11,095 nucleotides of DNA from a virus, in IMG/VR virus record IMGVR_UViG_3300020227_000065, positions 1 to 11,095 of that record; one strand, 5' to 3'. Below are positions 1 to 11,095 of the stretch, piece after piece. Numbering within the stretch: position 1 is the stretch's first letter; every line of letters starts with the position of its first letter. Position numbers and translations under genes: made by a program. The notes below the pieces were generated by a model that was not told the origin of the DNA, ran no database searches, and saw only the letters and a list, made by a program, of their open reading frames with translations.

Positions 1-70
1 GCCCCCCCCCCTCTAATTGTCCAAATCCCCATAATAGTCTGACAATTATGTGCGAGTGAAGGTGGCTAAA

Positions 71-190
71 GATTCAAAATGATTAGAATTATCTGACAAT
101 ACGATCTATGATTCTAAAAGATTTCTGATAATTCAAAATGATTTTTTAACTTGACAACATGGGTCAAATATGATTCTATTTTGATTCATA
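71..190. repeat. Degenerate ~60-bp direct duplication inside the ITR, with three conserved blocks per unit
   Basis: ATTCAAAATGATT occurs at 72-84 and 131-143. TGACAA occurs at 94-99 and 152-157. TATGATTCTA occurs at 107-116 and 169-178. The block order is the same in both units, offset by 58-62 bp. The structure is mirrored in ITR-R. Confidence 0.6.
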
Positions 191-210
191 AATGGGGCAT
201 GTTGTCAAGT
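149..210. repeat. 13-bp inverted repeat (ACTTGACAACATG / CATGTTGTCAAGT) with a 36-nt spacer at the inner edge of ITR-L
   Basis: Arms at 149-161 and 198-210 are perfectly complementary. The left arm contains a consensus TTGACA (151-156). T-rich sequence follows (212-222). Confidence 0.8.
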
Positions 211-259
211 ATGTTTTATTTTGTCATATTTTGTTCTCTATTTTGTTAAGTCTTTTCTA

Positions 260-288
260 TTGCAATTAGATTCTATTTGTATTAGAAT
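260..288 (+). promoter_or_regulatory. Sigma-A-like early promoter candidate, TTGCAA-17 nt-TAGAAT
   Basis: TTGCAA at 260-265, a 17-nt spacer, then TAGAAT at 283-288. T-rich TATTTTG repeats lie upstream. It is ~15 nt upstream of the strong SD (AAGAGGTGA, 304-312) of the first ORF. Confidence 0.5.
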
Positions 289-317
289 AGTAGATAGTTA
301 GAAAAGAGGTGAAACAT

Positions 318-428
318 ATGACTATTAAGTGTAGAGTTTGGAACTCACTCACTAAAAAAGAAAAGTTGAAAATGCTACAAATAGAAGTAGAATATAACAT
401 TTTCAACTATATAAAGAAAGTATCCTAA
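318..428 (+). CDS. Untracked 36-aa micro-ORF (MTIKCRVWNSLTKKEKLKMLQIEVEYNIFNYIKKVS), hypothetical early protein
   Basis: Hand-translated: ATG at 318, TAA at 426-428. It has the best SD in the window (AAGAGGTGA), 5 nt upstream of the ATG. It is the first ORF downstream of the promoter candidate. No recognisable motif. Confidence 0.4.
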   Translation: MTIKCRVWNSLTKKEKLKMLQIEVEYNIFNYIKKVS

Positions 429-460
429 AACATTATAACATAGAAAAGGGGATTTTATTC

Positions 461-808
461 ATGGGATTTTTAGATAAGTATAATAAGAAACCATTATTTG
501 AGTATGACAACAACAAGGAAAGGGAATATATCAACTTGGAAGGGTTGGTCAATCATTTTGGAATTATGGAGGTTTATGATGTTCATGCATTGTTCATTAA
601 TACAAAATCAAGATATGGTGATGCACCTATCATTGTAACAGATGAATACATGGTAAACGCACCCCATCATCTATTAGAAACAGTAAAAGAAATGCTGGCG
701 GATAGTGATTTGATTAACATGATAAACAATAGAAAAGTAGGGTTCACTATCTATGGTTACAACGGTAAAAACGGTTATGGGTATTCAGTAGAATGGGTTG
801 AAAAGTAA
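461..808 (+). CDS. 115-aa early protein, possibly a phi29 p5-like single-stranded DNA-binding protein
   Basis: SD AAAGGGGA lies upstream. Size, position and a loose pattern match to my recollection of phi29 p5: YGDA...TV.E...DLI......F.V......KGN.F.S versus SRYGDAP...ETVKEMLADSDLINMINNRKVGFTIYGYNGKNGYGYS. A dedicated terminator follows. The functional call is tentative. Confidence 0.4.
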   Translation: MGFLDKYNKKPLFEYDNNKEREYINLEGLVNHFGIMEVYDVHALFINTKSRYGDAPIIVTDEYMVNAPHHLLETVKEMLADSDLINMINNRKVGFTIYGYNGKNGYGYSVEWVEK

Positions 809-816
809 GCTAATAA

Positions 817-846
817 AGGGGTGATTTAATTCACCCCTATTTTTAT
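817..846 (+). terminator. Rho-independent terminator/attenuator after the 115-aa gene
   Basis: Stem AGGGGTGA (817-824) / TCACCCCT (831-838), 6-nt loop TTTAAT, then ATTTTTAT. There is no room for a new promoter before the next start at 863. Confidence 0.8.
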
Positions 847-862
847 AAAAGAAGGTGAAGGA

Positions 863-1099
863 ATGGGAAAAAATAATATGTTGATTATTGGGAAATATTG
901 TCGTAATTACCGCATAACTATATTAGAATTAAGGTTACAAGATATAGAAGGGAATGAAAATGTAAAGTCTTTGTCTAGCTTTGAACATGGTAGAAGTAGC
1001 AACATTAACCACCTATTAAAATATGTAAAAGCATGTGAAACCAAACAACAAAAACTAGATTTTTTACAAGGATTGATTACAACTATAGAAGGTGAATAA
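863..1099 (+). CDS. Small helix-turn-helix (XRE/Cro-like) transcriptional regulator, 78 aa
   Basis: IGKYCRNYRITILELRLQDIEGNENVKSLSSFEHGRSSNINHLLKY fits the HTH_3 pattern (helix, ...S.[FI]E.G...). SD GAAGGTGAAGGA lies upstream. The stop TAA abuts the next ATG (1097-1102). Confidence 0.6.
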   Translation: MGKNNMLIIGKYCRNYRITILELRLQDIEGNENVKSLSSFEHGRSSNINHLLKYVKACETKQQKLDFLQGLITTIEGE

Positions 1100-1756
1100 A
1101 TGGTACTAGATAAAAGTTGGAAAAATATTGATAGGAAAATAGAAACGGGTCAAGAAAAATTTCAAAAGAAACAAGAAGCAAAAATAAGGAAATACCGGCA
1201 AGAAGCGTCAAGAAAAGTTAGTATGGCAAATAAACGATTGCAACGGTTGGAATTTAATAAACTTACAGACAATACCGCATATCAAAGTTTAGTAGGGGAA
1301 GATGGGAAGAAACCCCGTTTTAGTATTAGGGGAAAAGATTATAATGAAGTGCAACGGGAAGTTGCTAGAATGAATAAATTTTTAAATGCGGAAACTTCTA
1401 CTGTAAGGGGTTCTAATAGAGTATTAAAAGAAATGGCAAAAAATACGGGTATCAAATATAAAAATTTAACGGAATTAAAAAAGTCGGCTAGTAGTTTTTT
1501 CAGATTAGCAAACAAGGTAGAAGAATATTTAAGAACCGTAGAAGATAGAGCAAGTGCGGTAGGGTATCAAAAAATATGGGAAGCGGTAAACCAATATGTA
1601 CAAGAAGAAAGCATAGATTTAGCGGAAGCGGAAAACGATATTGATTATATGGTGGATAAGGTAGTAAAGAAAATTGATAAGGTTATGAATGAAGAAGAAA
1701 AATTTACTTTCTATGATACAGGTATGAAAGTAACAGGTTGGTACACGTTAAAATAA
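1100..1756 (+). CDS. Candidate terminal (priming) protein, 218 aa
   Basis: It sits immediately upstream of the protein-primed PolB, as in phi29 (gene 3-gene 2) and Bam35. The N-terminus is highly basic (KFQKKQEAKIRKYRQEASRK). The C-terminus is rich in Ser/Thr/Tyr (FTFYDTGMKVTGWYTLK). The genome has ITRs. I recognise no sequence motif, so the call is positional. Confidence 0.5.
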   Translation: MVLDKSWKNIDRKIETGQEKFQKKQEAKIRKYRQEASRKVSMANKRLQRLEFNKLTDNTAYQSLVGEDGKKPRFSIRGKDYNEVQREVARMNKFLNAETSTVRGSNRVLKEMAKNTGIKYKNLTELKKSASSFFRLANKVEEYLRTVEDRASAVGYQKIWEAVNQYVQEESIDLAEAENDIDYMVDKVVKKIDKVMNEEEKFTFYDTGMKVTGWYTLK

Positions 1757-1771
1757 TAGGGGATATGTAAA

Positions 1772-3883
1772 ATGATAGATATTAAACAACTAAAAATAGA
1801 AAACTTACAATCTATCAATATACCCACTATTAGAACCAATAAGAAAATAGAATATCTGAATATAGAAAGTGCATTCGATATTGAAACAACTTCTATAAAA
1901 TTACAGGGTGATGAAAAAAGCGCATTTATGTATATATGGATGTTCGGCATAGGTTATGGGGAAAATGTTTACTATGGTAGAACATGGAAACAATTTATAG
2001 ATTTATGTAAAATCCTACAAAAAACATACGGACTAAATAAAAACAAAAGATTAGTAGTTTATGTTCATAACCTGGGATATGAATTTCAATTCATGCGGAA
2101 ATATTTTGAATGGGAAAATGTTTTTGCGGTTGGGGAACGAAAACCCATAAAAGCACTATGTACCTATGGAATAGAATTTAGGGATAGTTATATATTAAGT
2201 GGGTATTCACTAGCAAAAACAGGGGAAAACCTACAAAAACACAATATCCAAAAATTAACGGGTGATCTAGATTATTCATTAATAAGAACCCAACATACTA
2301 CATTAACAGATGAAGAAATGGCATATTGTAACAATGATATAGAAGTAGTAAACGCGTATATCAATGAACAAATAGAACAATACGGGGATATTACAAAAAT
2401 ACCCTTAACAAATACGGGAAGGGTTAGAAGTTATGTAAGAAATAATTGTTATTATACAAGCAAGAATCATAGAAAATCAAGTAAGGGAAAATATTACCGT
2501 TATCGTAAAATCATGAATGATCTAACCGTTACTAAAGATGAATATGTAAGGTTAAAACGTGCTTTTATGGGGGGATTTACACACGCAAACGCAAATTATA
2601 GCGGTCAATTACTGGAAGGGGTAACAAGTATAGATTTTACAAGTAGCTATCCTAGTGTTATGTTAGCGGAACAATATCCAATGAGTAGGGGAAAAGAAGT
2701 ACAAATAAAAAACATATCCCATTTAGAATGGTACTGTAATAAATTTTGTATGTTGTTTGATATAAAATTACACAATGTAAGAAGTAAAATTCCACAAGAA
2801 AACTACATAAGTGAAAGTAAGTGCTATGTTTTAAAAGGTGCGGAAATTAATAATGGTAGGGTGTATAGTGCGGAAGAACTAGCCATGACAATTACTAATG
2901 TAGATTATGATATTATCAAACAATGTTATGAATGGGACGGAATAAGTGTTACTAATGTAATACGATACCACAAGGGATATTTACCTAAACCCATTATAGA
3001 AAGTATTTTAAAATTATATCAAGATAAAACCGTATTAAAAGGGGTAGAAGGGTATGAAGTCGAATACCTACTATCTAAAGGAATGTTAAATAGCGTATAT
3101 GGTATGTGTGTAACGGATATTGTAAAAGATGAACATACCTACTTAGATGAATGGGGAAAAGAGCCAGCTAACATAGAAGAACAAATACAAAAATACAATG
3201 AAAGTAAAAATAGATTCTTATATTACCCTTGGGGTGTATGGGTTACGGCATATGCAAGAAAAAATTTATGGACCGGTATTTTAGCATTAGGGAATGATTA
3301 TGTTTATAGTGATACAGATTCTATTAAAATGTTGAATTATGAAAAACATTTAGATTATATTGGTTGGTATAATACTATGACGGTACAAAAATTACAAGAA
3401 ATGTGTAAACATTATAAAATAGATGATAAACTATTAGAACCAAAAACCAAAAAAGGTGAAAGGAAAATGATAGGGATATGGGATTATGAAGGAACATATT
3501 CCCGTTTTAAAACATTAGGGGCGAAAAGATACCTAGTACAAGAAGGTGATAAACTCTTTTTAACGGTTGCAGGCCTTTCTAAACAAAATGGGATAAATTA
3601 CATGATTGAACAGTGTAATGGTGATTATGAAAAAGTTTTTCATATGTTTAATGATGAATTATATGTACCTGCTGAACGTACGGGGAAAATGACACACACC
3701 TATATAGATGAAAAACAAGAATACAGAATAAAAGACTATCAAGGAAACGATTCTACTATTAGTGTAGAAAGTGGAATACATTTAGAACCATGTGACTTTA
3801 CATTAAGTATATCCAAGCAATACGGAAAATTTTTAGATCAATTTATGAAAGGTTATTTATTTAAGGGGGTACAATACCAATGA
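1772..3883 (+). CDS. Protein-primed family B DNA polymerase, 703 aa
   Basis: Motifs by residue:
- Exo I: FDIETT (D36/E38)
- Exo II: HNLGYEF (99-105)
- Exo III: YCNNDIEVV (Y185/D189)
- Pre-motif A: FMGGFT
- Motif A: DFTSSYPS (D288)
- Motif B: KGMLNSVYG (K436)
- Motif C: YSDTDS (D514/D516)
- KxY: GAKRYL
All are collinear with phi29 DNA polymerase. Confidence 0.97.
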   Translation: MIDIKQLKIENLQSINIPTIRTNKKIEYLNIESAFDIETTSIKLQGDEKSAFMYIWMFGIGYGENVYYGRTWKQFIDLCKILQKTYGLNKNKRLVVYVHNLGYEFQFMRKYFEWENVFAVGERKPIKALCTYGIEFRDSYILSGYSLAKTGENLQKHNIQKLTGDLDYSLIRTQHTTLTDEEMAYCNNDIEVVNAYINEQIEQYGDITKIPLTNTGRVRSYVRNNCYYTSKNHRKSSKGKYYRYRKIMNDLTVTKDEYVRLKRAFMGGFTHANANYSGQLLEGVTSIDFTSSYPSVMLAEQYPMSRGKEVQIKNISHLEWYCNKFCMLFDIKLHNVRSKIPQENYISESKCYVLKGAEINNGRVYSAEELAMTITNVDYDIIKQCYEWDGISVTNVIRYHKGYLPKPIIESILKLYQDKTVLKGVEGYEVEYLLSKGMLNSVYGMCVTDIVKDEHTYLDEWGKEPANIEEQIQKYNESKNRFLYYPWGVWVTAYARKNLWTGILALGNDYVYSDTDSIKMLNYEKHLDYIGWYNTMTVQKLQEMCKHYKIDDKLLEPKTKKGERKMIGIWDYEGTYSRFKTLGAKRYLVQEGDKLFLTVAGLSKQNGINYMIEQCNGDYEKVFHMFNDELYVPAERTGKMTHTYIDEKQEYRIKDYQGNDSTISVESGIHLEPCDFTLSISKQYGKFLDQFMKGYLFKGVQYQ

Positions 3884-4980
3884 GTAAAAAAGAACAAAAA
3901 CCTAAATATTATAGTTTGAACCGTATTAAGAAAAAAAATGCGGTTTACAATGTAATATTTGGGGAACGTTCAAATGGGAAAACATATGCGGTATTAAAAG
4001 AGGGGATAGAAAACTACTGGAAAACAGGGGGGCAAATAGCGGTAGTTAGAAGATGGAAAGAAGATATAACAGGGAAACGGGCGCAAGGAATTTTTAATGC
4101 ATTAAATGAAAATGATGAGATACGAAAAATAACGAATGATGAGTTTGAAGGGGTACACTATTACAACGGTAAATTTTATTTATGTACCTATAAAGATAAT
4201 AAAGTAGTTTACAATGATACGGATATTATAGGATATACCTTTGCATTATCGGATAATGAACACAATAAAAGTATTTCCTATCCTAGAGTGCAGATAATTC
4301 TATTTGATGAATTTTTAACGAAACATTTATATTTAAATGATGAATTTGTTTTATTTATGAATACGATTTCCACTATTGTAAGACAACGGACAGACGTAAA
4401 AATATATATGCTAGGGAATACCGTAAATAAATACTGCCCATATTTTCAAGAAATGGGATTGAACCATATATTGAAAATGGAACAAGGTACAATAGATGTT
4501 TATAAATATGGGGAAAGTGGTTTAACGGTTGCGGTGGAATACTGCGCAAGTACCCAACATAAAAAAGCGAATAACTTCTATTTTGCTTTTAACAATCCTA
4601 AATTAGAAATGATAACAGGGGGCGCATGGGAATTAAATATTTACCCCCATAGTCCTATTAAGTTTAAGCCTAAAGATATTAAACTAATTTACTTCATTCT
4701 ATTTAACGATAATACCTATCAATGCGAAATAGTGGTAAAAGGAAACATTACATTTACATTTATTCATATTAAAACTACAGAATTACAGAATACTGAAAAG
4801 GATTTAATCTATACACTAGAATATATTCCCAAAATAAATTATAATAGAAACATATTTAAGCCTATTAATAAGGTGCAAGAAAAAATTGTATGGTATTTTA
4901 AAACGGATAGAGTGTATTACCAAAATAATGAAGTAGGAGATGCAATCTCTAACTACTTAAAAATATGTAAGAGAGGATAG
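3880..4980 (+). CDS. phi29 gp16-like DNA encapsidation (packaging) ATPase, 366 aa
   Basis: YNVIFGERSNGKTYAVLK...GGQIAVVRRWKED matches gp16 LNFVIGARGIGKSYAMKV...GEQFIYVRRYKPE (Walker A). YPRVQIILFDEFL matches gp16 YPNVSTIVFDEFI (Walker B). ATGA overlap with the polymerase stop. Confidence 0.9.
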   Translation: MSKKEQKPKYYSLNRIKKKNAVYNVIFGERSNGKTYAVLKEGIENYWKTGGQIAVVRRWKEDITGKRAQGIFNALNENDEIRKITNDEFEGVHYYNGKFYLCTYKDNKVVYNDTDIIGYTFALSDNEHNKSISYPRVQIILFDEFLTKHLYLNDEFVLFMNTISTIVRQRTDVKIYMLGNTVNKYCPYFQEMGLNHILKMEQGTIDVYKYGESGLTVAVEYCASTQHKKANNFYFAFNNPKLEMITGGAWELNIYPHSPIKFKPKDIKLIYFILFNDNTYQCEIVVKGNITFTFIHIKTTELQNTEKDLIYTLEYIPKINYNRNIFKPINKVQEKIVWYFKTDRVYYQNNEVGDAISNYLKICKRG

Positions 4981-4983
4981 AAT

Positions 4984-5169
4984 ATGATGGACGAATTTAC
5001 AAGTTTAATTAGTAACGTAGGATTCCCGATCGCAATTAGTATTGCCTTATTTTATCAATTAATGAAAACCAATGAAATAGTACGGGAATTTCAATCTACA
5101 ATAGATAATAATACCGCTACAATGGAAAGAATGTTGGATAGATTAGAAGATACTAAAAAGGTGGGGTAG
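4984..5169 (+). CDS. 61-aa single-pass membrane protein, YvrJ-family-like; the only holin candidate
   Basis: One hydrophobic segment (LISNVGFPIAISIALFYQLM) followed by a charged C-terminal tail. The SLISNVGFPI...Y.L pattern resembles the YvrJ family as I remember it. Confidence 0.5.
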   Translation: MMDEFTSLISNVGFPIAISIALFYQLMKTNEIVREFQSTIDNNTATMERMLDRLEDTKKVG

Positions 5170-5172
5170 TAG

Positions 5173-6213
5173 ATGTATAATTATAAAAATAAAAGGGATA
5201 ACATAAAACAGTTAAATAAATATATGTTATCCCGCACCCTTTCTATGTTTAACTATTCGGATTTACCTACTACATTACCTAGTGTAGAAATGGAAAAACA
5301 GTTACAGAAAAAAGGGTACACCTTTATTACTATGGTAGAGGGTTCATTGTATGCATTTCAGGGGGGTTTAGGTGGTGAACCCAACCCCTATGGACAACCA
5401 ACGAAAATAACCATTAATAACCCTTCATTAAACTATAGTGCAACATTAGATATAGAAAAAGATGGGGTATTAATTAAAAATGATGATATGATGATGGGGT
5501 TGTTTACACTATTTGATAAATATAATACCTTATTAATTGAAAATGAAATTACTATGTTTATAAATTCCTACAATACGAGGGTTCAAACGCTTTTAAGTGC
5601 AGGTGATGATTCTACCAAAGAAAGTGCGGAATTATACCTAAAGAAAGTAATAGAAGGGGAATTGGGTATCATAGGGGAAAACCAATTATTTGAGGATTTA
5701 AAAGTGCAAAAAGCGCAAGCAGACAATGCAAACGTAACAACTCAACTAATAGAGTTTAACCAATATTTGAAAGCAAGTCTATATAATGAAGTAGGCTTAA
5801 ATGCTAACTTTAATATGAAAAGGGAAAGACTAAATTCTAGTGAGGTGAAACTCAATACCGACAACCTATACCCCCTTATTCATAATATGCTAGAAAATCG
5901 AAAACAAGGCATAGAGAAACTAAATGAAATGTATGATTTACAAATAGGTGTGGAATTTGGTTCTATATGGAATTTTAGAAATATTAGTGATACAATAGAA
6001 GAACCTAAAGAAACCATAGACGAACAAGAAGAACCAACATTGGAAAATGAAGAACCTTCATTGGAACAAGAAGAACCTATTTTGGAAGATGAAGAACCAA
6101 CATTGGAAAATGAAGAACCAATTTCGGAAGATGAAGAACCAATTTCGGAAGATGAAGAACCAATTTCGGAAGATGAAAGTGCTACTACATTAGAGGAGGT
6201 GGAAAAAAGATGA
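5173..6213 (+). CDS. Portal / upper collar (connector) protein with an acidic C-terminal repeat tail, 346 aa
   Basis: The N-terminal pattern LSRTLSMFNYSDLPTTLPSVEMEKQLQKKGYTFIT resembles phi29 gp10 ([28 protein letters not shown]). Its size and its position next to the packaging ATPase fit a portal. The C-terminal 50 aa are (EEPxxE[NQD])7. Confidence 0.75.
   Translation: MYNYKNKRDNIKQLNKYMLSRTLSMFNYSDLPTTLPSVEMEKQLQKKGYTFITMVEGSLYAFQGGLGGEPNPYGQPTKITINNPSLNYSATLDIEKDGVLIKNDDMMMGLFTLFDKYNTLLIENEITMFINSYNTRVQTLLSAGDDSTKESAELYLKKVIEGELGIIGENQLFEDLKVQKAQADNANVTTQLIEFNQYLKASLYNEVGLNANFNMKRERLNSSEVKLNTDNLYPLIHNMLENRKQGIEKLNEMYDLQIGVEFGSIWNFRNISDTIEEPKETIDEQEEPTLENEEPSLEQEEPILEDEEPTLENEEPISEDEEPISEDEEPISEDESATTLEEVEKR
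6028..6174 (+). repeat. In-frame tandem repeat, 7 x 21 bp, encoding EEPTLEN/EEPSLEQ/EEPILED/EEPTLEN/EEPISED x3
   Basis: Units start at 6028, 6049, 6070, 6091, 6112, 6133 and 6154. Units 5-7 are identical at nucleotide level (63 bp) and units 1 and 4 are identical. A degenerate copy lies upstream (5998-6027, EEPKETIDEQ). Confidence 0.95.
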
Positions 6214-6749
6214 TGTTTAATGAGTGGATAAAAGATAATTCTTTATTTAGTGAAATTGATTCTATTAAACCTTTCCCCTTTATATCTCAACATGGGGCAA
6301 AAAACATAGATTTAGTTTATAAAATGAGTTATGGAAGTAAAACCATTCCCAAAAATGTGGAATGTTTAACGGTTAATGAAGTTGCTAACATAATTGTTGT
6401 TAATTATGGGGATAGCTGGAATAACAAATATAGCCTATTAAAAGATGAAATTTTATTAGGGGTGGAAGAAAAAACCGTATTAGATGAAACCGTAACAGAT
6501 GAATATTTAAGGACTATGAGTAGTAACCAAGAAAATAAAGTAAGTGCTTTTAATGATGATGAATTAAGTCCTAACGATTCTAGCAATGATTCCCTAAATG
6601 ATAAAAGCGATAAAGATGTAAACAGGAATAGGGAAATTACAAAAACAAGTTTGAACGCTATTAAAACACAATTAGAAATATTCAATTCCAATTTTATCAA
6701 TATAGTATGTAAAGATGTAAGTAAAATTGTTTCACTATCAATCTATTAA
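6210..6749 (+). CDS. Hypothetical 179-aa morphogenesis/virion protein with an acidic Ser/Asn/Asp-rich linker
   Basis: Strong SD GAGGAGGTGG (6192-6201) and an ATGA overlap with the portal stop. Low-complexity segment SPNDSSNDSLNDKSDKDVNRN. It occupies the slot after the portal where phi29 has the lower collar, but I recognise no motif. Confidence 0.55.
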   Translation: MMFNEWIKDNSLFSEIDSIKPFPFISQHGAKNIDLVYKMSYGSKTIPKNVECLTVNEVANIIVVNYGDSWNNKYSLLKDEILLGVEEKTVLDETVTDEYLRTMSSNQENKVSAFNDDELSPNDSSNDSLNDKSDKDVNRNREITKTSLNAIKTQLEIFNSNFINIVCKDVSKIVSLSIY

Positions 6750-6778
6750 AAGGGGAATGTAAAATGAAAATTACACAA
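6748..6778 (+). repeat. Duplicated translation-initiation region, copy 1 (SD + ATG + MKITQ codons)
   Basis: AAAAGGgGAATGTAAAATGAAAATTACACAA matches 7074-7104 at 30 of 31 positions. The 24 nt at 6755-6778 are identical to 7081-7104. Confidence 0.9.
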
Positions 6779-7033
6779 CACTTTTCTAACCTAATGAAGG
6801 AATTAGAAAGTGACTTTAAAAAAGCAAGTAGCTATAATGCCTATTCGAAATTTCATGAAATGGTTACTATTAGAGCAAAGGCTGGGGCATATAGAGAGAT
6901 ATTAAGACCGTTACTATTAGATCATACTAAACAACATTTAAACGGTGATGTAAAAAGGTTTAATGAAGAGTTGAAAGTTTTTCAGGAAAAATGTAGTAAT
7001 CAAATTAATAAAGTATTAAACGATGTAATCTAA
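6764..7033 (+). CDS. 89-aa predicted helical protein, candidate scaffolding protein
   Basis: It lies directly upstream of the major capsid gene, as phi29 gp7 (98 aa) lies upstream of gp8. It is small, charged and heptad-like in composition. The call rests on position and composition only. Confidence 0.4.
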   Translation: MKITQHFSNLMKELESDFKKASSYNAYSKFHEMVTIRAKAGAYREILRPLLLDHTKQHLNGDVKRFNEELKVFQEKCSNQINKVLNDVI

Positions 7034-7073
7034 TAAAAAACAACATTTTAATTTTAGACTATAAATTTATCTA

Positions 7074-7104
7074 AAAAGGAGAATGTAAAATGAAAATTAC
7101 ACAA
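7074..7104 (+). repeat. Duplicated translation-initiation region, copy 2 (SD + ATG + MKITQ codons)
   Basis: AAAAGGaGAATGTAAAATGAAAATTACACAA. See copy 1. Confidence 0.9.
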
Positions 7105-8250
7105 TTACACGAATTAGTAAACATGGCCACACAAGAAGTATTAGGAACAGAAGTCGTAGTAAATGAAGATTTAAGTAATATTGTAGATGTTGGTAATCAA
7201 ATTATTAATAGTGATAATGTTGATAACTATGTTAAAAAGCTAGTGAATCATATTGGAAAAGTAACATTTAAGAACCGCCTATATAGTGGGGGTGCGCCTA
7301 GTGTATTAATGGATTCATGGGAATATGGTTCAATCCTAGAAAAAGTTAGTGCGGATATGCCACACGCTACAGAAAATTCAAGTGCTATGCTTAAAAATGG
7401 GGAAGATTATTCACCCGATATTTTCTACCAACCTTCAGTTAGCGCACAGTTTTTCAATAGCAAAATCACCTTTGAAATTCCTTTATCATTTACGGAAAGA
7501 CAAGTAAAAGAATCATTCAGTAATGCGAATCAATTAAACGGATTTATTTCCATGCTTTCAACAAGTGTAGAAAATGCTATGACTGTGAAGCTAGATTCCC
7601 TTATTATGCGCACTATCAATAATATGACGGGAGAAACATTAAAAGCTGATCTAGATAATGAGGGTGAAATTGATTTAACTAGCACAGGGGTAAAAGCGGT
7701 AAACCTTCTAAAATTGTATAATGAAGAATATGGGGAAACATTAGAAAAAAATAAAGCACTATCAAATAGTAATTTTATTCGATACGCAACCTATATCATA
7801 GGGTTGTATAGTGATAGAATCTCTAAAATTAGTACCCTGTTCAATATTGGGGGAAAAGAACGTTTCACAAGTGGGGATTTTAAAAAGACTGTTTTATTAT
7901 CAGACTTTGAAAAAGCTAGTAATATTTTCTTGAAAGCAGATATTCAAAATCAAGAACAAATTACGTTGCCAACCCATGAAACCGTACCATATTGGCAAGG
8001 TAGCGGAAATTCATATAGCTTTGATGATGTTTCAAGTATTAATGTTAAAACTTCTACAGGTGCGGAAGTGAACGCATCGGGAATTTTGGGGGTTATGTTT
8101 GATAGGGAAGCTATAGGGGTTGCAAACCTAGATAGAAGGGTAACAACCAATTACAACCCTAAAGCAGAATTTTATACGAACTTCTATAAATTTGATGCTG
8201 GATATTATAACGATTTGAATGAAAACTTTGTAGTATTTTTCATAGGTTAA
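7090..8250 (+). CDS. Major capsid protein (phi29 gp8-like, HK97 fold expected), 386 aa
   Basis: The N-terminal pattern ...VGNQIINSDNVDNYVKKLVNHIGKV resembles gp8 ...[26 protein letters not shown]. It is the largest head-module ORF, lies downstream of the scaffold-like gene, and is followed by a strong terminator. Confidence 0.7.
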   Translation: MKITQLHELVNMATQEVLGTEVVVNEDLSNIVDVGNQIINSDNVDNYVKKLVNHIGKVTFKNRLYSGGAPSVLMDSWEYGSILEKVSADMPHATENSSAMLKNGEDYSPDIFYQPSVSAQFFNSKITFEIPLSFTERQVKESFSNANQLNGFISMLSTSVENAMTVKLDSLIMRTINNMTGETLKADLDNEGEIDLTSTGVKAVNLLKLYNEEYGETLEKNKALSNSNFIRYATYIIGLYSDRISKISTLFNIGGKERFTSGDFKKTVLLSDFEKASNIFLKADIQNQEQITLPTHETVPYWQGSGNSYSFDDVSSINVKTSTGAEVNASGILGVMFDREAIGVANLDRRVTTNYNPKAEFYTNFYKFDAGYYNDLNENFVVFFIG

Positions 8251-8259
8251 TCATTTCAT

Positions 8260-8290
8260 GGGGTGCGGTTAATCGTACCCCTTTTATTTT
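8260..8290 (+). terminator. Rho-independent terminator/attenuator after the capsid gene
   Basis: Stem GGGGTGCG (8260-8267) / CGTACCCC (8274-8281), 8 bp including one G-U pair. Loop GTTAAT, then TTTTATTTT (8282-8290). Confidence 0.85.
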
Positions 8291-8302
8291 GGGGGTGTAA
8301 GG

Positions 8303-8740
8303 GTGGAAATTACGTTATATAATACATTGGATAATGATAATGTTATCAATAAAGATTTAACTATGATTTATTCATTTAGTTTGAAATTGAAAAAAGATAC
8401 GGACATTGTAAACCCTACTATATTATTGAATGATAAAAATAGTATGGATTTTACAGAATGTAATTATTGTTATTTAGAAGATTTTAACCGTTATTACTTC
8501 ATTAGGGATATAGAAAGCATAAATAATAATATTTGGCGGTTGGCACTGGAATGTGATGTACTGGAAACCTATAAAGATGATATATTGAATAGTGATGTTG
8601 AAATAAACAGGAAAATAAAACAAGGCGATTTTATAGAAGGTAATTTTAAAACACAAGTTATAAAAGAGGTAGACATATATAAAAGTGATGTAGTTATGGA
8701 AGATGTGAGTAAAATTATACTTTCTACTATAGGGGGTTAA
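8303..8740 (+). CDS. 145-aa tail protein resembling the N-terminal domain of phi29 gp9-type tail knob proteins; GTG start
   Basis: CNYCYLEDFNRYYFIRDIESINNNIWRLALECDVLETYKDDI compares with gp9 [47 protein letters not shown], sharing the E.DVL.T signature. The GTG at 8303 sits 7 nt after GGGGG (8291-8295). The first in-frame ATG is 20 codons further in. Confidence 0.5.
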   Translation: MEITLYNTLDNDNVINKDLTMIYSFSLKLKKDTDIVNPTILLNDKNSMDFTECNYCYLEDFNRYYFIRDIESINNNIWRLALECDVLETYKDDILNSDVEINRKIKQGDFIEGNFKTQVIKEVDIYKSDVVMEDVSKIILSTIGG

Positions 8741-8743
8741 TGT

Positions 8744-10204
8744 ATGGCTATTAAAAGTAGGCATTTTTATTGGGATATTGAAAATAGGCATAGGGTAGAA
8801 TCATTTTTTATTTATAATCATGGTAGTGGTACGGGTGCGGATAGAAACTATATGGAAGAATCATTTGATTATCAATTTACAGGGGAAAATACCTATACTA
8901 TTACAATTAATGCTAAGAGTGGTTATGGTTTTATTGAACCCCCGTTAATACGTCATTTTACAAGTGCGGATTCCACTGTGAGTGATTCATCTATACCAAT
9001 GGAAATTAATGAGGATAGAACACAAGCAACATTTACATTTACCAATGGAAACGGGAATTATTACGGGTTGGATAATGACTGGAAATTATATCTTTATAGT
9101 GAAGTAGAAGATTATTTAGGAATAGTTAAAACCTTTACCGCTTCATTACTAATGAATAATGTTACTTGTCATTTTAAAAATGGAACGGAAACCATTACCC
9201 TAAATTATGGGGAAAGTAAAGAAATTCCCGTAGGTAATTATAATATTGAAATAGTAGTAAATAATGGTTTTAAAATTGTTAGTATTACCGCAACCCATGA
9301 AGAAATTGGTCCTAATCCAAGTGGGGAAATGTATTTTTCTATATCAGATGATGGGAAGAAAGCAACGGGGAATAGTGATTTTAATGAAGGGGATACCCTA
9401 ACTATTAGGGGTGTAACGGAAATTGTAGAGGGTGTGCCTAGTGTAGTAGGTACGTTTAACCATTTATATTTAATAGATAGTACCAATTTACGAAAATTAA
9501 CGAATCATATTACAGTAATGGAAGCTAAAGAAGAAAGAGATACCATTCAACAGTATATGATAAATGTATTAAGATTCCCATTCAATATAAATGAAACCCA
9601 TATAATAGGTAATAATGGGGTTATATTAGGGGCGAAAATATTTGATAAATTAGAAGTATTAGAAATAGATATAGATCAACTAACTATAGATATGGGTAAA
9701 ATAGAAATACCGTTAAAATATAATAATACCTTTGATTATCTAAATACAAGTTGTATTTTACATTTACCCTACTCAGAAAATATAGAGTTAGAACCTAGTT
9801 ATATTATAGGTGAAACTATTTTTATAGAATATATTGTAAGTCTATATGATGGGGAAGGAACAATAAATATTAGTAGTAGCAAGATAGATGATGTTTTTCT
9901 ATCCCAACCTATCAAAATAGGTACGGTTATACCTTATTTTAACCATAATCAAAAAGGATACACACAATCCCAGCAAACATTGTTAGGTGTATATAATAAG
10001 TTAAAACAGGCATATGTAGAAGTAATTAGGAACATACCATATGAAAATGATAGTCCATTTAATGATGGGGTGATAACTCAATCTAAATTAAAAAATGAAA
10101 AGGGTTATGTTAAAGTGAATAATATAATACTAGAAAATAAAGCAACTTCACAAGAAAGAAATGAAATTATTAGAATGTTGGAAAGTGGGGTATTTATTAA
10201 ATGA
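8744..10204 (+). CDS. 486-aa tail protein: beta-rich N-terminal half (candidate receptor-binding modules) plus a conserved-looking C-terminal tail-tube/knob-like half
   Basis: SD AGGGGG lies 7 nt upstream. It is the only large ORF between the capsid and lysis genes. The N-terminal ~240 aa contain two similar beta-strand-like modules (YTITINAKSGYGFIEPP and YNIEIVVNNGFKIVSITAT). The C-terminal half has LHLPYSENIELEPSYIIGETIFIEYIVSLYDGEGTINI, a pattern I associate with phage tail hub/knob barrels. Confidence 0.5.
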   Translation: MAIKSRHFYWDIENRHRVESFFIYNHGSGTGADRNYMEESFDYQFTGENTYTITINAKSGYGFIEPPLIRHFTSADSTVSDSSIPMEINEDRTQATFTFTNGNGNYYGLDNDWKLYLYSEVEDYLGIVKTFTASLLMNNVTCHFKNGTETITLNYGESKEIPVGNYNIEIVVNNGFKIVSITATHEEIGPNPSGEMYFSISDDGKKATGNSDFNEGDTLTIRGVTEIVEGVPSVVGTFNHLYLIDSTNLRKLTNHITVMEAKEERDTIQQYMINVLRFPFNINETHIIGNNGVILGAKIFDKLEVLEIDIDQLTIDMGKIEIPLKYNNTFDYLNTSCILHLPYSENIELEPSYIIGETIFIEYIVSLYDGEGTINISSSKIDDVFLSQPIKIGTVIPYFNHNQKGYTQSQQTLLGVYNKLKQAYVEVIRNIPYENDSPFNDGVITQSKLKNEKGYVKVNNIILENKATSQERNEIIRMLESGVFIK

Positions 10205-10878
10205 TGTACTATGACAAAAGAAACCGTAACAACATTAAAAAACTAGCAAATAACACTAGAAAAAAGGCTTTGCAATGGTATGAATTTTGTGTAAAGAATA
10301 ACATTAATATTTTAGTATATGAAACAATTAGGGACGAAAAAACGCAACGGGAGAACGTGCAGAAAGGTGTTTCTCAAACCATGAAAAGTTACCATTTAGT
10401 AGGACAAGCACTGGATTTTGTACCCGTTAATTCTAAAGGTGAAACCCTATGGAATGGGTATGGTGCTAGTGATATAAAGAAAGCTATTGAACATGCCAAA
10501 AAACTAGGCTTTGAATGGGGTGGCGATTGGAAAGGTTTCATAGATAAACCCCACCTACAATATAATTATAATGGTTATGGTTCGGATTCATTCGATAAAC
10601 CTTCTAATAATGAACAAATAACAATGGATATTGAAAACCTAGTAAAACGTACTATTAGAGGTGATTTTGGTAACGGTGAAGAACGTAAAAGAAAATTAGG
10701 TTCTAATTATCAAAGAGTACAAGATATTATTAATGGTAAAACTTATAATAATTCAGTTAATATTGACGATTTAGTGAAGCGTACTATTAGAGGTGAATTT
10801 GGCAACGGTGCTGAACGTAAAAAGAAACTAGGAAAACATTACAATGAAGTGCAAAAAAGAATAAATAAAATGTATTAA
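10201..10878 (+). CDS. Endolysin: peptidase M15 (VanY/L-Ala-D-Glu peptidase-like, LAS fold) catalytic domain + two CW_7 (Cpl-7-type) cell-wall-binding repeats
   Basis: Zn ligand pattern SYH65LVGQALD72 (H-x6-D), EWGGDW and DKPH118LQ. Two repeats carry LVKRTIRG[DE]FGNG.ERK.KLG..Y..VQ..IN, matching the CW_7 consensus. No signal peptide. ATGA overlap with the upstream gene. Confidence 0.9.
   Translation: MMYYDKRNRNNIKKLANNTRKKALQWYEFCVKNNINILVYETIRDEKTQRENVQKGVSQTMKSYHLVGQALDFVPVNSKGETLWNGYGASDIKKAIEHAKKLGFEWGGDWKGFIDKPHLQYNYNGYGSDSFDKPSNNEQITMDIENLVKRTIRGDFGNGEERKRKLGSNYQRVQDIINGKTYNNSVNIDDLVKRTIRGEFGNGAERKKKLGKHYNEVQKRINKMY
10627..10872 (+). repeat. Two CW_7 repeat units (10627-10737 and 10762-10872) within the endolysin
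   Basis: aa 143-179 and aa 188-224 are highly similar. The nucleotide strings are also close (…CGTACTATTAGAGGTGA[TA]TTTGG[TC]AACGGTG…GAACGTAAAA…). Confidence 0.85.
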
Positions 10879-10884
10879 TAACTT

Positions 10885-11095
10885 TACTTGACAACATGCC
10901 CCATTTATGAATCAAAATAGAATCATATTTGACCCATGTTGTCAAGTTAAAAAATCATTTTGAATTATCAGAAATCTTTTAGAATCATAGATCGTATTGT
11001 CAGATAATTCTAATCATTTTGAATCTTTAGCCACCTTCACTCGCACATAATTGTCAGACTATTATGGGGATTTGGACAATTAGAGGGGGGGGGGC
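10885..11095. repeat. Right inverted terminal repeat (ITR-R), 211 bp, ending GGGGGGGGGGC-3'
   Basis: Exact reverse complement of 1-211. It begins 6 nt after the endolysin stop codon (10876-10878). Confidence 0.97.
10886..10947. repeat. Mirror copy of the 13-bp-arm inverted repeat at the inner edge of ITR-R, immediately after the last gene
   Basis: Arms at 10886-10898 and 10935-10947. It starts 8 nt after the endolysin stop and is the only potential RNA hairpin downstream of the + strand gene train. Confidence 0.8.

Follow-up and report, generated by a model that had tools for sequence, protein, structure and literature searches.

Two adjacent open reading frames (ORFs) in the IMG/VR virus record IMGVR_UViG_3300020227_000065, of which positions 1 to 11,095 were analysed here (the whole of this 11,095-nucleotide stretch is hereafter termed the window), are very probably separate, co-transcribed and translationally coupled genes encoding the two subunits of a two-gene tail knob. 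The first ORF encodes a protein of 145 amino acids (aa), referred to below as the N-part, and the second a protein of 486 aa, the C-part. This type of feature is already known, and the window represents a new, divergent member of the phages that carry it. For this phage group Evseev et al. 2024 (PMC11476376) described a "tail knob ... encoded by two genes", comprising a small protein like the N-terminal part of p9 and a large protein in which a variable number of immunoglobulin (Ig)-like domains is followed by the counterpart of the p9 C-terminus.

The junction of the two ORFs reads ...ACT ATA GGG GGT TAA TGT ATG GCT ATT..., with TAA at 8738-8740, TGT at 8741-8743 and ATG at 8744-8746. An initial annotation of the sequence had drawn attention to two tail ORFs lying in one frame with only TAA-TGT between them, and this is accurate (8744 - 8303 = 441 = 3 x 147). 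The lengths it compared are likewise both correct: a fusion would span 633 codons (145 + 1 + 1 + 486), while phi29 gp9 has 599 aa. The AGGGGG which it placed 7 nucleotides (nt) ahead of the second start codon was found at 8731-8736, within the conserved Gly-Gly codons that end the N-part gene. Related split loci were compared as a set of 84 non-redundant relatives (clustered at 85% identity), and in 66 of these a purine run resembling a Shine-Dalgarno (SD) site occupies the last codons of the N-part gene. No promoter or terminator was found between the two knob genes. As far as can be read from sequence, a tight junction with an embedded SD site is what translationally coupled gene pairs normally look like.

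The identity of the N-part is indicated by its predicted fold and by its relatives. In the AlphaFold2 (AF2) model, residues 1-110 form a beta-rich domain with the knob N-terminal fold and are confidently predicted (mean predicted local distance difference test score, pLDDT, 77 overall; block means 81-93 over aa 1-100), while residues 120-145 are disordered in the monomer yet conserved, ending in a nearly invariant TIGG. In a Foldseek search of the PDB, tail knobs take the first nine places, namely those of C1 (gp12), Andhra and phi29 (gp9) (4eo2_A, 8egs_Y, 5fb5, 5fb4, 5fei; probability 0.93-1.0, E 1e-3 to 6e-2, ~115 aligned columns). Structure prediction, which the initial annotation had proposed for this ORF, thus ties its fold to gp9-type knobs. 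Weak sequence signals point the same way: the N-part family profile matched PDB 4eo2 (C1 gp12 residues 70-145, E 7.8e-4), and the N-part itself matched positions 60-142 of 590 in PHROG 2248, a 'tail protein' family, as well as Pfam Caud_tail_N below the cut-off. The E.DVL.T signature on which that annotation had relied is also real, occurring as ECDVLET in the window (aa 83-89) and as EIDVLQT in phi29 gp9, with the counterparts PDVVMT in C1 gp12 and IDTVMT in Andhra. By tblastn the N-part is 37-43% identical to the gp9-equivalents of Astrid, astrithr, Phanie and DU_PP_III (92-100% of the query covered, E 6e-30 to 2e-22); the window therefore holds a stand-alone ~145-aa gene homologous to Astrid gp09 and Phanie gp9. 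Almost all of the 258 close homologues, and of the 150 top-scoring hits among the 8866 from a profile search, are 140-150 aa long. Since hundreds of homologues measure 142-149 aa, the split is both old and conserved.

The two parts are connected by relatives in which they are joined. From viral and metagenome collections we fetched 160 related loci (numbered with the prefix L), and in about 16 of these the 145-aa domain begins a single ORF of 455-580 aa. These single-gene relatives (e.g. L040, L045, L062, L074 and L078, on 12-14-kb metagenomic podophage contigs) are homologous to both parts, and differ from the window in encoding one polypeptide and in having no Ig-like modules. The N-part family aligns with the fused N-terminus (~107 aa) at an hhalign probability of 99.7% (E 1.5e-26), and under permissive settings all 145 N-part residues, including the conserved C-terminal tail, are aligned, reaching fused residue ~156. 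From aa 234 onwards the C-part family aligns with fused residues 157-472 (probability 96.8%, E 3e-10). Between the split point and this homologous region, the C-part carries ~233 aa of linker and Ig-like modules. The fused family is in turn collinear with the phi29 gp9 family profile (probability 75%, E 2.5e-5). In gp9 itself, the Pfam domains Caud_tail_N and phi29_gp9_C occupy residues 7-122 and 151-597, respectively; because the former ends at 122 and the latter begins at 151, the split falls at the gp9 domain boundary.

Further arrangements were encountered among the fetched loci. L047 and L072 have the knob genes in reverse order, the capsid gene being followed by the C-part (556 and 622 aa) and then by the N-part (155 aa). 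The N-part domain was also observed at the C-terminal end of ORFs of 300-590 aa (L046 2678-4405, L055 2645-4420, L057 1-1552, L067 3554-4462), and in L046, L055 and L057 it ends a protein of 575-590 aa. The additional ~150-420 N-terminal residues of these four ORFs are without a family match, and a C-part of 349-385 aa comes after them.

In the C-part, the AF2 model and the homologue alignment delimit a disordered start (residues 1-34), Ig-like beta-sandwich modules (~37-230) and a conserved knob C-terminal domain (234-486). Homologues range from 343 to 679 aa, with the last ~250 aa conserved and the N-terminal region highly variable. The gene adjacent to the N-part thus has the expected plan, in which Ig-like domains, variable in number, precede a conserved C-terminal domain. 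Residues ~196-486 match Astrithrvirus-group proteins by tblastn, the C-terminal domain being 29-35% identical, and a Foldseek search of BFVD with the 486-aa model returned only uncharacterised relatives, the best named one being the Astrid gp10 equivalent (E 5e-24). A structural match of Phanie gp10 to the C-terminal part of gp9 has been reported (PMC11476376). When the C-part was merged with the fused C-terminal part into one profile, the gp9 family was matched at 74.7% (E 2.6e-5) with a core at gp9 436-582; the match includes the C-terminal motif GYVKVNN...ERNEIIRMLESGV, opposite FNYVQTK... in gp9, and the last ~35 aa of the C-part (GYVKVNNIILENKATSQERNEIIRMLESGV) align with the C-terminal segment of gp9. 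The knob-like C-terminal half that the initial annotation had ascribed to the 486-aa product accordingly shares homology with the corresponding part of the fused proteins and, apparently and more weakly, with gp9 ~436-582. Taken with the fold of the N-part, the collinearity with single-gene relatives upholds the proposal that the two ORFs jointly correspond to one gp9-type knob, and a split gp9-like knob appears to be right as a description of evolutionary history.

The N-terminal region of the C-part also varies at close range. A segment of 375 nt is absent, in frame, from compost-metagenome phages that are ~95% identical to the window (X2, X3, L169). In X2 and X3 the joint lies at 8750>9126 with 6 nt of microhomology, the first Ig-like module is lost, and in the compost variant (L169/P0121) the C-part is shortened from 486 to 361 aa. 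Because it is missing in frame from such close relatives, this segment is a dispensable or variable module.

Several observations count against equating the two ORFs with gp9. The sequence link between the C-part and gp9 is moderate (hhalign ~75%), and the C-part profile alone gave no signal against the gp9 family profile, one being obtained only from the profile merged with fused relatives. Direct sequence and profile searches of the PDB, Pfam (including PF20934, phi29_gp9_C) and PHROGs with the 486-aa protein found nothing, and in a Foldseek search of the PDB with the whole 486-aa model the top 50 comprised only Ig and FN3 proteins, as matches to the modules at aa 37-230. The N-part scored 15.2 bits against PF16838 (Caud_tail_N), below the Pfam gathering cut-off of 27 (E 0.032), and no more than 3 of 50 N-part family members match that family. 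As a control, gp9 itself scores 202 bits (Caud_tail_N) and 685 bits (phi29_gp9_C). Comparison of single sequences with phi29 gp9 or C1 gp12 by hhalign was uninformative, and Pfam and PHROG searches with the fused relatives gave no match. Furthermore, in place of the single ~570-600-aa polypeptide of a gp9-type knob, the window has two ORFs, with the intervening TAA confirmed in independent assemblies.

A second departure from gp9 concerns the hydrophobic loop at gp9 ~417-491, identified as the pore-forming L-loop (PMC6542822). We compared the segment between conserved anchors in 22 C-parts of the split clade and in 16 fused relatives. A Gly/Ala/Ser-rich hydrophobic loop is present in the fused relatives, where it spans 40-90 aa and resembles the gp9 L-loop, and is missing in 22/22 C-parts of the split clade; correspondingly, the segment measures 94-152 aa in the former and 52-58 aa in the latter. 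In the window (9900-10080, C-part aa ~395-450) it is 57 aa long, with 12% Gly/Ala/Ser and a maximum 19-residue hydropathy of 0.29, against 24-42% Gly/Ala/Ser (30-42% in 15/16) and a maximum hydropathy of 0.8-1.8 in the fused relatives, and of 1.29 in gp9. The window C-part thus has no hydrophobic pore-forming L-loop. We did not find this absence stated for the split clade in the review of Evseev et al. 2024 (PMC11476376), and it may be new.

It is conceivable, if quite improbable, that the 145-aa protein is not part of the knob proper and instead forms a separate tube-like or adaptor ring, derived from a knob N-domain and serving as a tail-tube or docking module, for example on the tail of a helper phage. 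Lower-ranked Foldseek matches of the N-part are indeed neck and stopper proteins (e.g. 9mu3_C, 8gtf_M, 3f3b), the domain can end much larger proteins or be encoded behind the C-part, as described above, and the clade is without the pore-forming loop. Phanie, the one group member for which such dependence has been shown, moreover requires a helper myophage tail, being infectious only when bound to it according to Pourcel et al. 2024 (J Virol 98:e00667-24), as cited in PMC11476376. Against this, the whole 145-aa protein, conserved tail included, follows residues 1 to ~156 of single-gene knobs in a collinear alignment, the two genes are nearly always adjacent and tightly coupled, and published AlphaFold models of six plus six subunits (Astrid, DU_PP_III) predict beta-sheets which join both parts (PMC11476376).

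Whether the shared frame carries meaning is a separate concern. Two adjacent genes share a frame by chance in one case of three. Across the 84 split loci, the relative frame of the second gene is 0 in 14 cases, +1 in 30 and +2 in 40, so that a shared frame is the least common arrangement (binomial p 0.001 for an expectation of 1/3). Junction spacings form a graded series of -4 (8 loci), -1 (10), 0 (1), +1 (15), +2 (16), +3 (10) and +4 (5). Within a single species the relative frame differs: the junction TAAATG of astrithr keeps the frame, and TAATG of Astrid does not. In the window itself, 4/12 gene junctions, that of the knob pair included, keep the frame across a gap of 0-3 nt, and such tight in-frame junctions are a general feature of this compact genome. 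Since frames vary, spacings are continuous, gene order can be swapped and other junctions look alike, the shared frame of the knob genes is a coincidence of tight gene packing, without function. This was among the options listed in the initial annotation, and it accounts for the frame; the comparison of gene organisation in relatives, which had been suggested there as a check, speaks against mechanisms that depend on a shared frame.

One such mechanism is programmed, low-level read-through of UAA 8738-8740, by which a minor 633-residue fusion isoform, needed in the tail, would be made. It would be invited by two ORFs in frame with one sense codon between them, and by the recurrence of the in-frame junction in the nearest relatives (L006, L169) and in 13 other non-redundant lineages. 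The rarity of that arrangement (14/84, hence no conservation), the change of frame between astrithr and Astrid, the swapped order in L047 and L072, and three unrelated window junctions with identical geometry make it very unlikely. A stop followed by U (UAAU) is a strong termination context, and this is the context found here. No stimulatory RNA structure was detected 3' of the stop (z of -0.13 for the 100-nt fold relative to shuffled sequence), and no tRNA gene, hence no suppressor tRNA, is encoded in the window. The two tail isoforms that the initial annotation had envisaged are therefore not borne out. Recoding of the stop was considered separately and rejected: besides the missing tRNA and structure, TAA, TAG and TGA each terminate other genes in the window.

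The stop codon itself is real, because independent assemblies from different studies (X1/L006 and X2/X3/L169) carry an identical junction. Plant-metagenome contigs (2019, 38x) are identical to the window across the knob region, and compost-metagenome contigs from another study (2025, 72x, ~95% nucleotide identity) keep exactly GGGGGTTAATGTATGG. No variant at 8738-8740 was seen in these contigs, which as assemblies rather than raw reads would not reveal rare variants. There is next to no chance that what is really one 633-codon gene has been interrupted at this TAA by a fresh nonsense mutation, by a mistake in sequencing or assembly, or by an artefact of propagation: the geometry does resemble one point change inside one ORF, but the junction recurs in the plant and compost assemblies, stand-alone ~145-aa ORFs are the rule in hundreds of relatives, and a well-placed SD site and ATG accompany the stop. 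The corresponding suggestions in the initial annotation fare accordingly. A sequencing or propagation mutation finds no backing, and of the proposed ancestral split with re-initiation at AGGGGG, the ancestral split with separate initiation explains the genes; a recent nonsense codon does not.

The history and assembly of the two-gene knob may be outlined as follows. The ancestral knob gene would have been a single one of ~460-600 aa, as in phi29, C1, Andhra and some close metagenomic relatives, and would have been divided at the boundary between the N-terminal and C-terminal domains. At its new N-terminus, the C-terminal gene would then have acquired Ig-like modules in varying number, and it would have lost the hydrophobic, membrane-active loop. 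In the present-day genome, ribosomes would terminate at the UAA, and the C-part would be initiated at ATG 8744 from the AGGGGG in the final Gly-Gly codons; the shared frame would simply result from a 3-nt spacer, one of many short spacings at the knob junction. Both proteins are expected to co-assemble beneath the collar into the distal tail tube, probably in six copies each. The conserved C-terminal tail of the N-part, disordered in the monomer, would pair with the C-part, and the Ig-like modules would be placed on the outside.

The window is a complete linear phage genome, as judged by perfect 211-bp inverted terminal repeats (ITRs) at both ends (1-211 and 10885-11095, beginning GCCCCCCCCCC), with a GC content of 30.6%. 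At 11,095 bp, it ranks among the smallest tailed-phage genomes. It belongs to a phi29-like, Astrithrvirus-like podophage and encodes phi29-like PolB, gp16 ATPase, connector and capsid proteins, with all major genes on the + strand (Table 1). The phages closest to it belong to the Astrithrvirus group, and a Vibrio phage is a relative too; the gene order is common to all. The setting expected for two-gene knob phages is found here, namely a linear genome of ~11-12 kb with terminal repeats, PolB, and knob genes between those for capsid and lysin.

Table 1. Features of the window (positions in nt) and related arrangements in other loci.
Feature	Position	Strand	Basis
In-frame junction besides the knob pair	863-1099/1100-1756		
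Protein-primed type-B DNA polymerase	1772-3883	+	
gp16-type packaging ATPase	3880-4980	+	
In-frame junction besides the knob pair	3880-4980/4984-5169		
61-aa membrane protein	between ATPase and connector genes	+	
In-frame junction besides the knob pair	4984-5169/5173-6213		
phi29-type connector	5173-6213	+	
179-aa protein	between connector and 89-aa ORF	+	
89-aa protein	6764-7033	+	
phi29-type major capsid protein	7090-8250	+	
Terminator-like hairpin (GGGGTGCGG-TTAA-TCGTACCCC) and T-run	8260..8290 (hairpin 8260-8281)	+	consensus scan
SD-like GGGGG, 7 nt ahead of N-part GTG	8291..8295	+	direct reading
Tail knob N-part ('minor part'), 145 aa, GTG start, TAA stop	8303..8740	+	AF2, Foldseek, profiles
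SD-like AGGGGG for C-part, within Gly-Gly codons ending N-part gene	8731..8736	+	
Junction TAA-TGT-ATG (N-part stop, 3-nt spacer, C-part start)	8738..8746	+	direct reading
Tail knob C-part ('major part'), 486 aa	8744..10204	+	AF2, alignment, tblastn, hhalign
Variable segment, 375 nt (125 codons): disordered start and first Ig-like module	8751..9125	+	
Conserved C-terminal domain of C-part (aa 234-486, VGTFNHLY to end)	9443..10204	+	
M15 peptidase/CW_7 endolysin	10201-10878	+	
Swapped knob gene order	L047 2295-4429; L072 2130-4432		

Between the capsid stop (8250) and the N-part gene, the hairpin at 8260-8281 has a 9-pair stem with 6 G-C pairs and the tail TTTTATTTTG; placed after the abundant capsid message, the element at 8260-8290 probably lowers transcription into the tail genes. 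Some further observations were made upstream. The 89-aa ORF is missing in the close relative L169 and is flanked in the window by a ~45-nt direct repeat (6734-6778, 7058-7102); an MKITQ start behind similar SD sites is common to this ORF and the capsid gene. The 89-aa ORF resembles an accessory gene that repeat recombination has added or removed. The C-terminus of the connector (window 6030-6200) contains an acidic tandem repeat of ~60 aa, (EEPxLE[NQD])n followed by (EEPISED)n, of which an overlapping ORF in the +2 frame (6047-6193) is a by-product.

Relative to the Astrithrvirus group, the window shares an ~11-kb genome with ITRs; the order PolB, ATPase, small transmembrane protein, connector, small collar-like gene, capsid, N-part, C-part and lysin; an N-part of ~145 aa at the identities given above; the domain plan of the C-part; and a tight junction with an embedded SD site. 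It differs in its GC content and in its distant DNA, for which one megablast match of 677 nt, in the ATPase gene, was obtained. Two Ig-like modules are present in the window (one in close variants) and six in Phanie. With phi29 gp9 (5FB4/5FB5), C1 gp12 (4EO2) and Andhra (8EGS) it has in common the N-terminal fold, including E.DVL.T, and the place downstream of the capsid gene; a collinear C-terminal domain with its C-terminal motif appears to be shared as well, as judged by phi29 gp9. In contrast to these gp9-type knobs, the window has two genes rather than one, Ig-like modules inserted at the split point, no counterpart of the gp9 L-loop, and proteins that fall below Pfam gathering thresholds.

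The host may differ as well. The endolysin is an M15 L-Ala-D-Glu peptidase, 60-67% identical to lysins of Bacillus and Listeria phages, and also carries two CW_7 cell-wall-binding repeats. This resemblance suggests, from sequence comparison, a Gram-positive, Bacillales-like host, whereas the described members of the Astrithrvirus group were isolated on Gram-negative bacteria. The window phage occurs in sequencing runs from plant and compost metagenomes.

The finding serves chiefly as a corrective, in that an in-frame stop junction in a compact phage genome should not be equated with a broken or recoded gene unless relatives have been checked. For annotation, we propose the names 'tail knob protein, N-terminal subunit' and 'tail knob protein, C-terminal subunit', several public records leaving the knob genes hypothetical or unannotated. 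In the GenBank record of Pectobacterium phage DU_PP_III (L001, MF979562.1), the C-part gene (~487 aa, 7877-9337) is unannotated; in others both knob genes are termed 'hypothetical', and the C-part of Phanie is labelled 'poly(beta-D-mannuronate) lyase'.

Of modest wider interest is the occurrence of one structural gene in fused, split, order-swapped and extended forms among relatives, as well as the loss of the membrane-active loop in the split forms. Speculatively, and on balance rather unlikely, the split of the knob, the added Ig-like modules and the loss of the loop may be one adaptation, in which docking, for example to the tail of a helper phage, replaces the phage's own breach of the membrane. 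If true, the Bacillus/Listeria-type lysin of the window would extend this 'tail piracy' lifestyle to Gram-positive hosts. The window genome suggests that the group extends beyond Gram-negative hosts.

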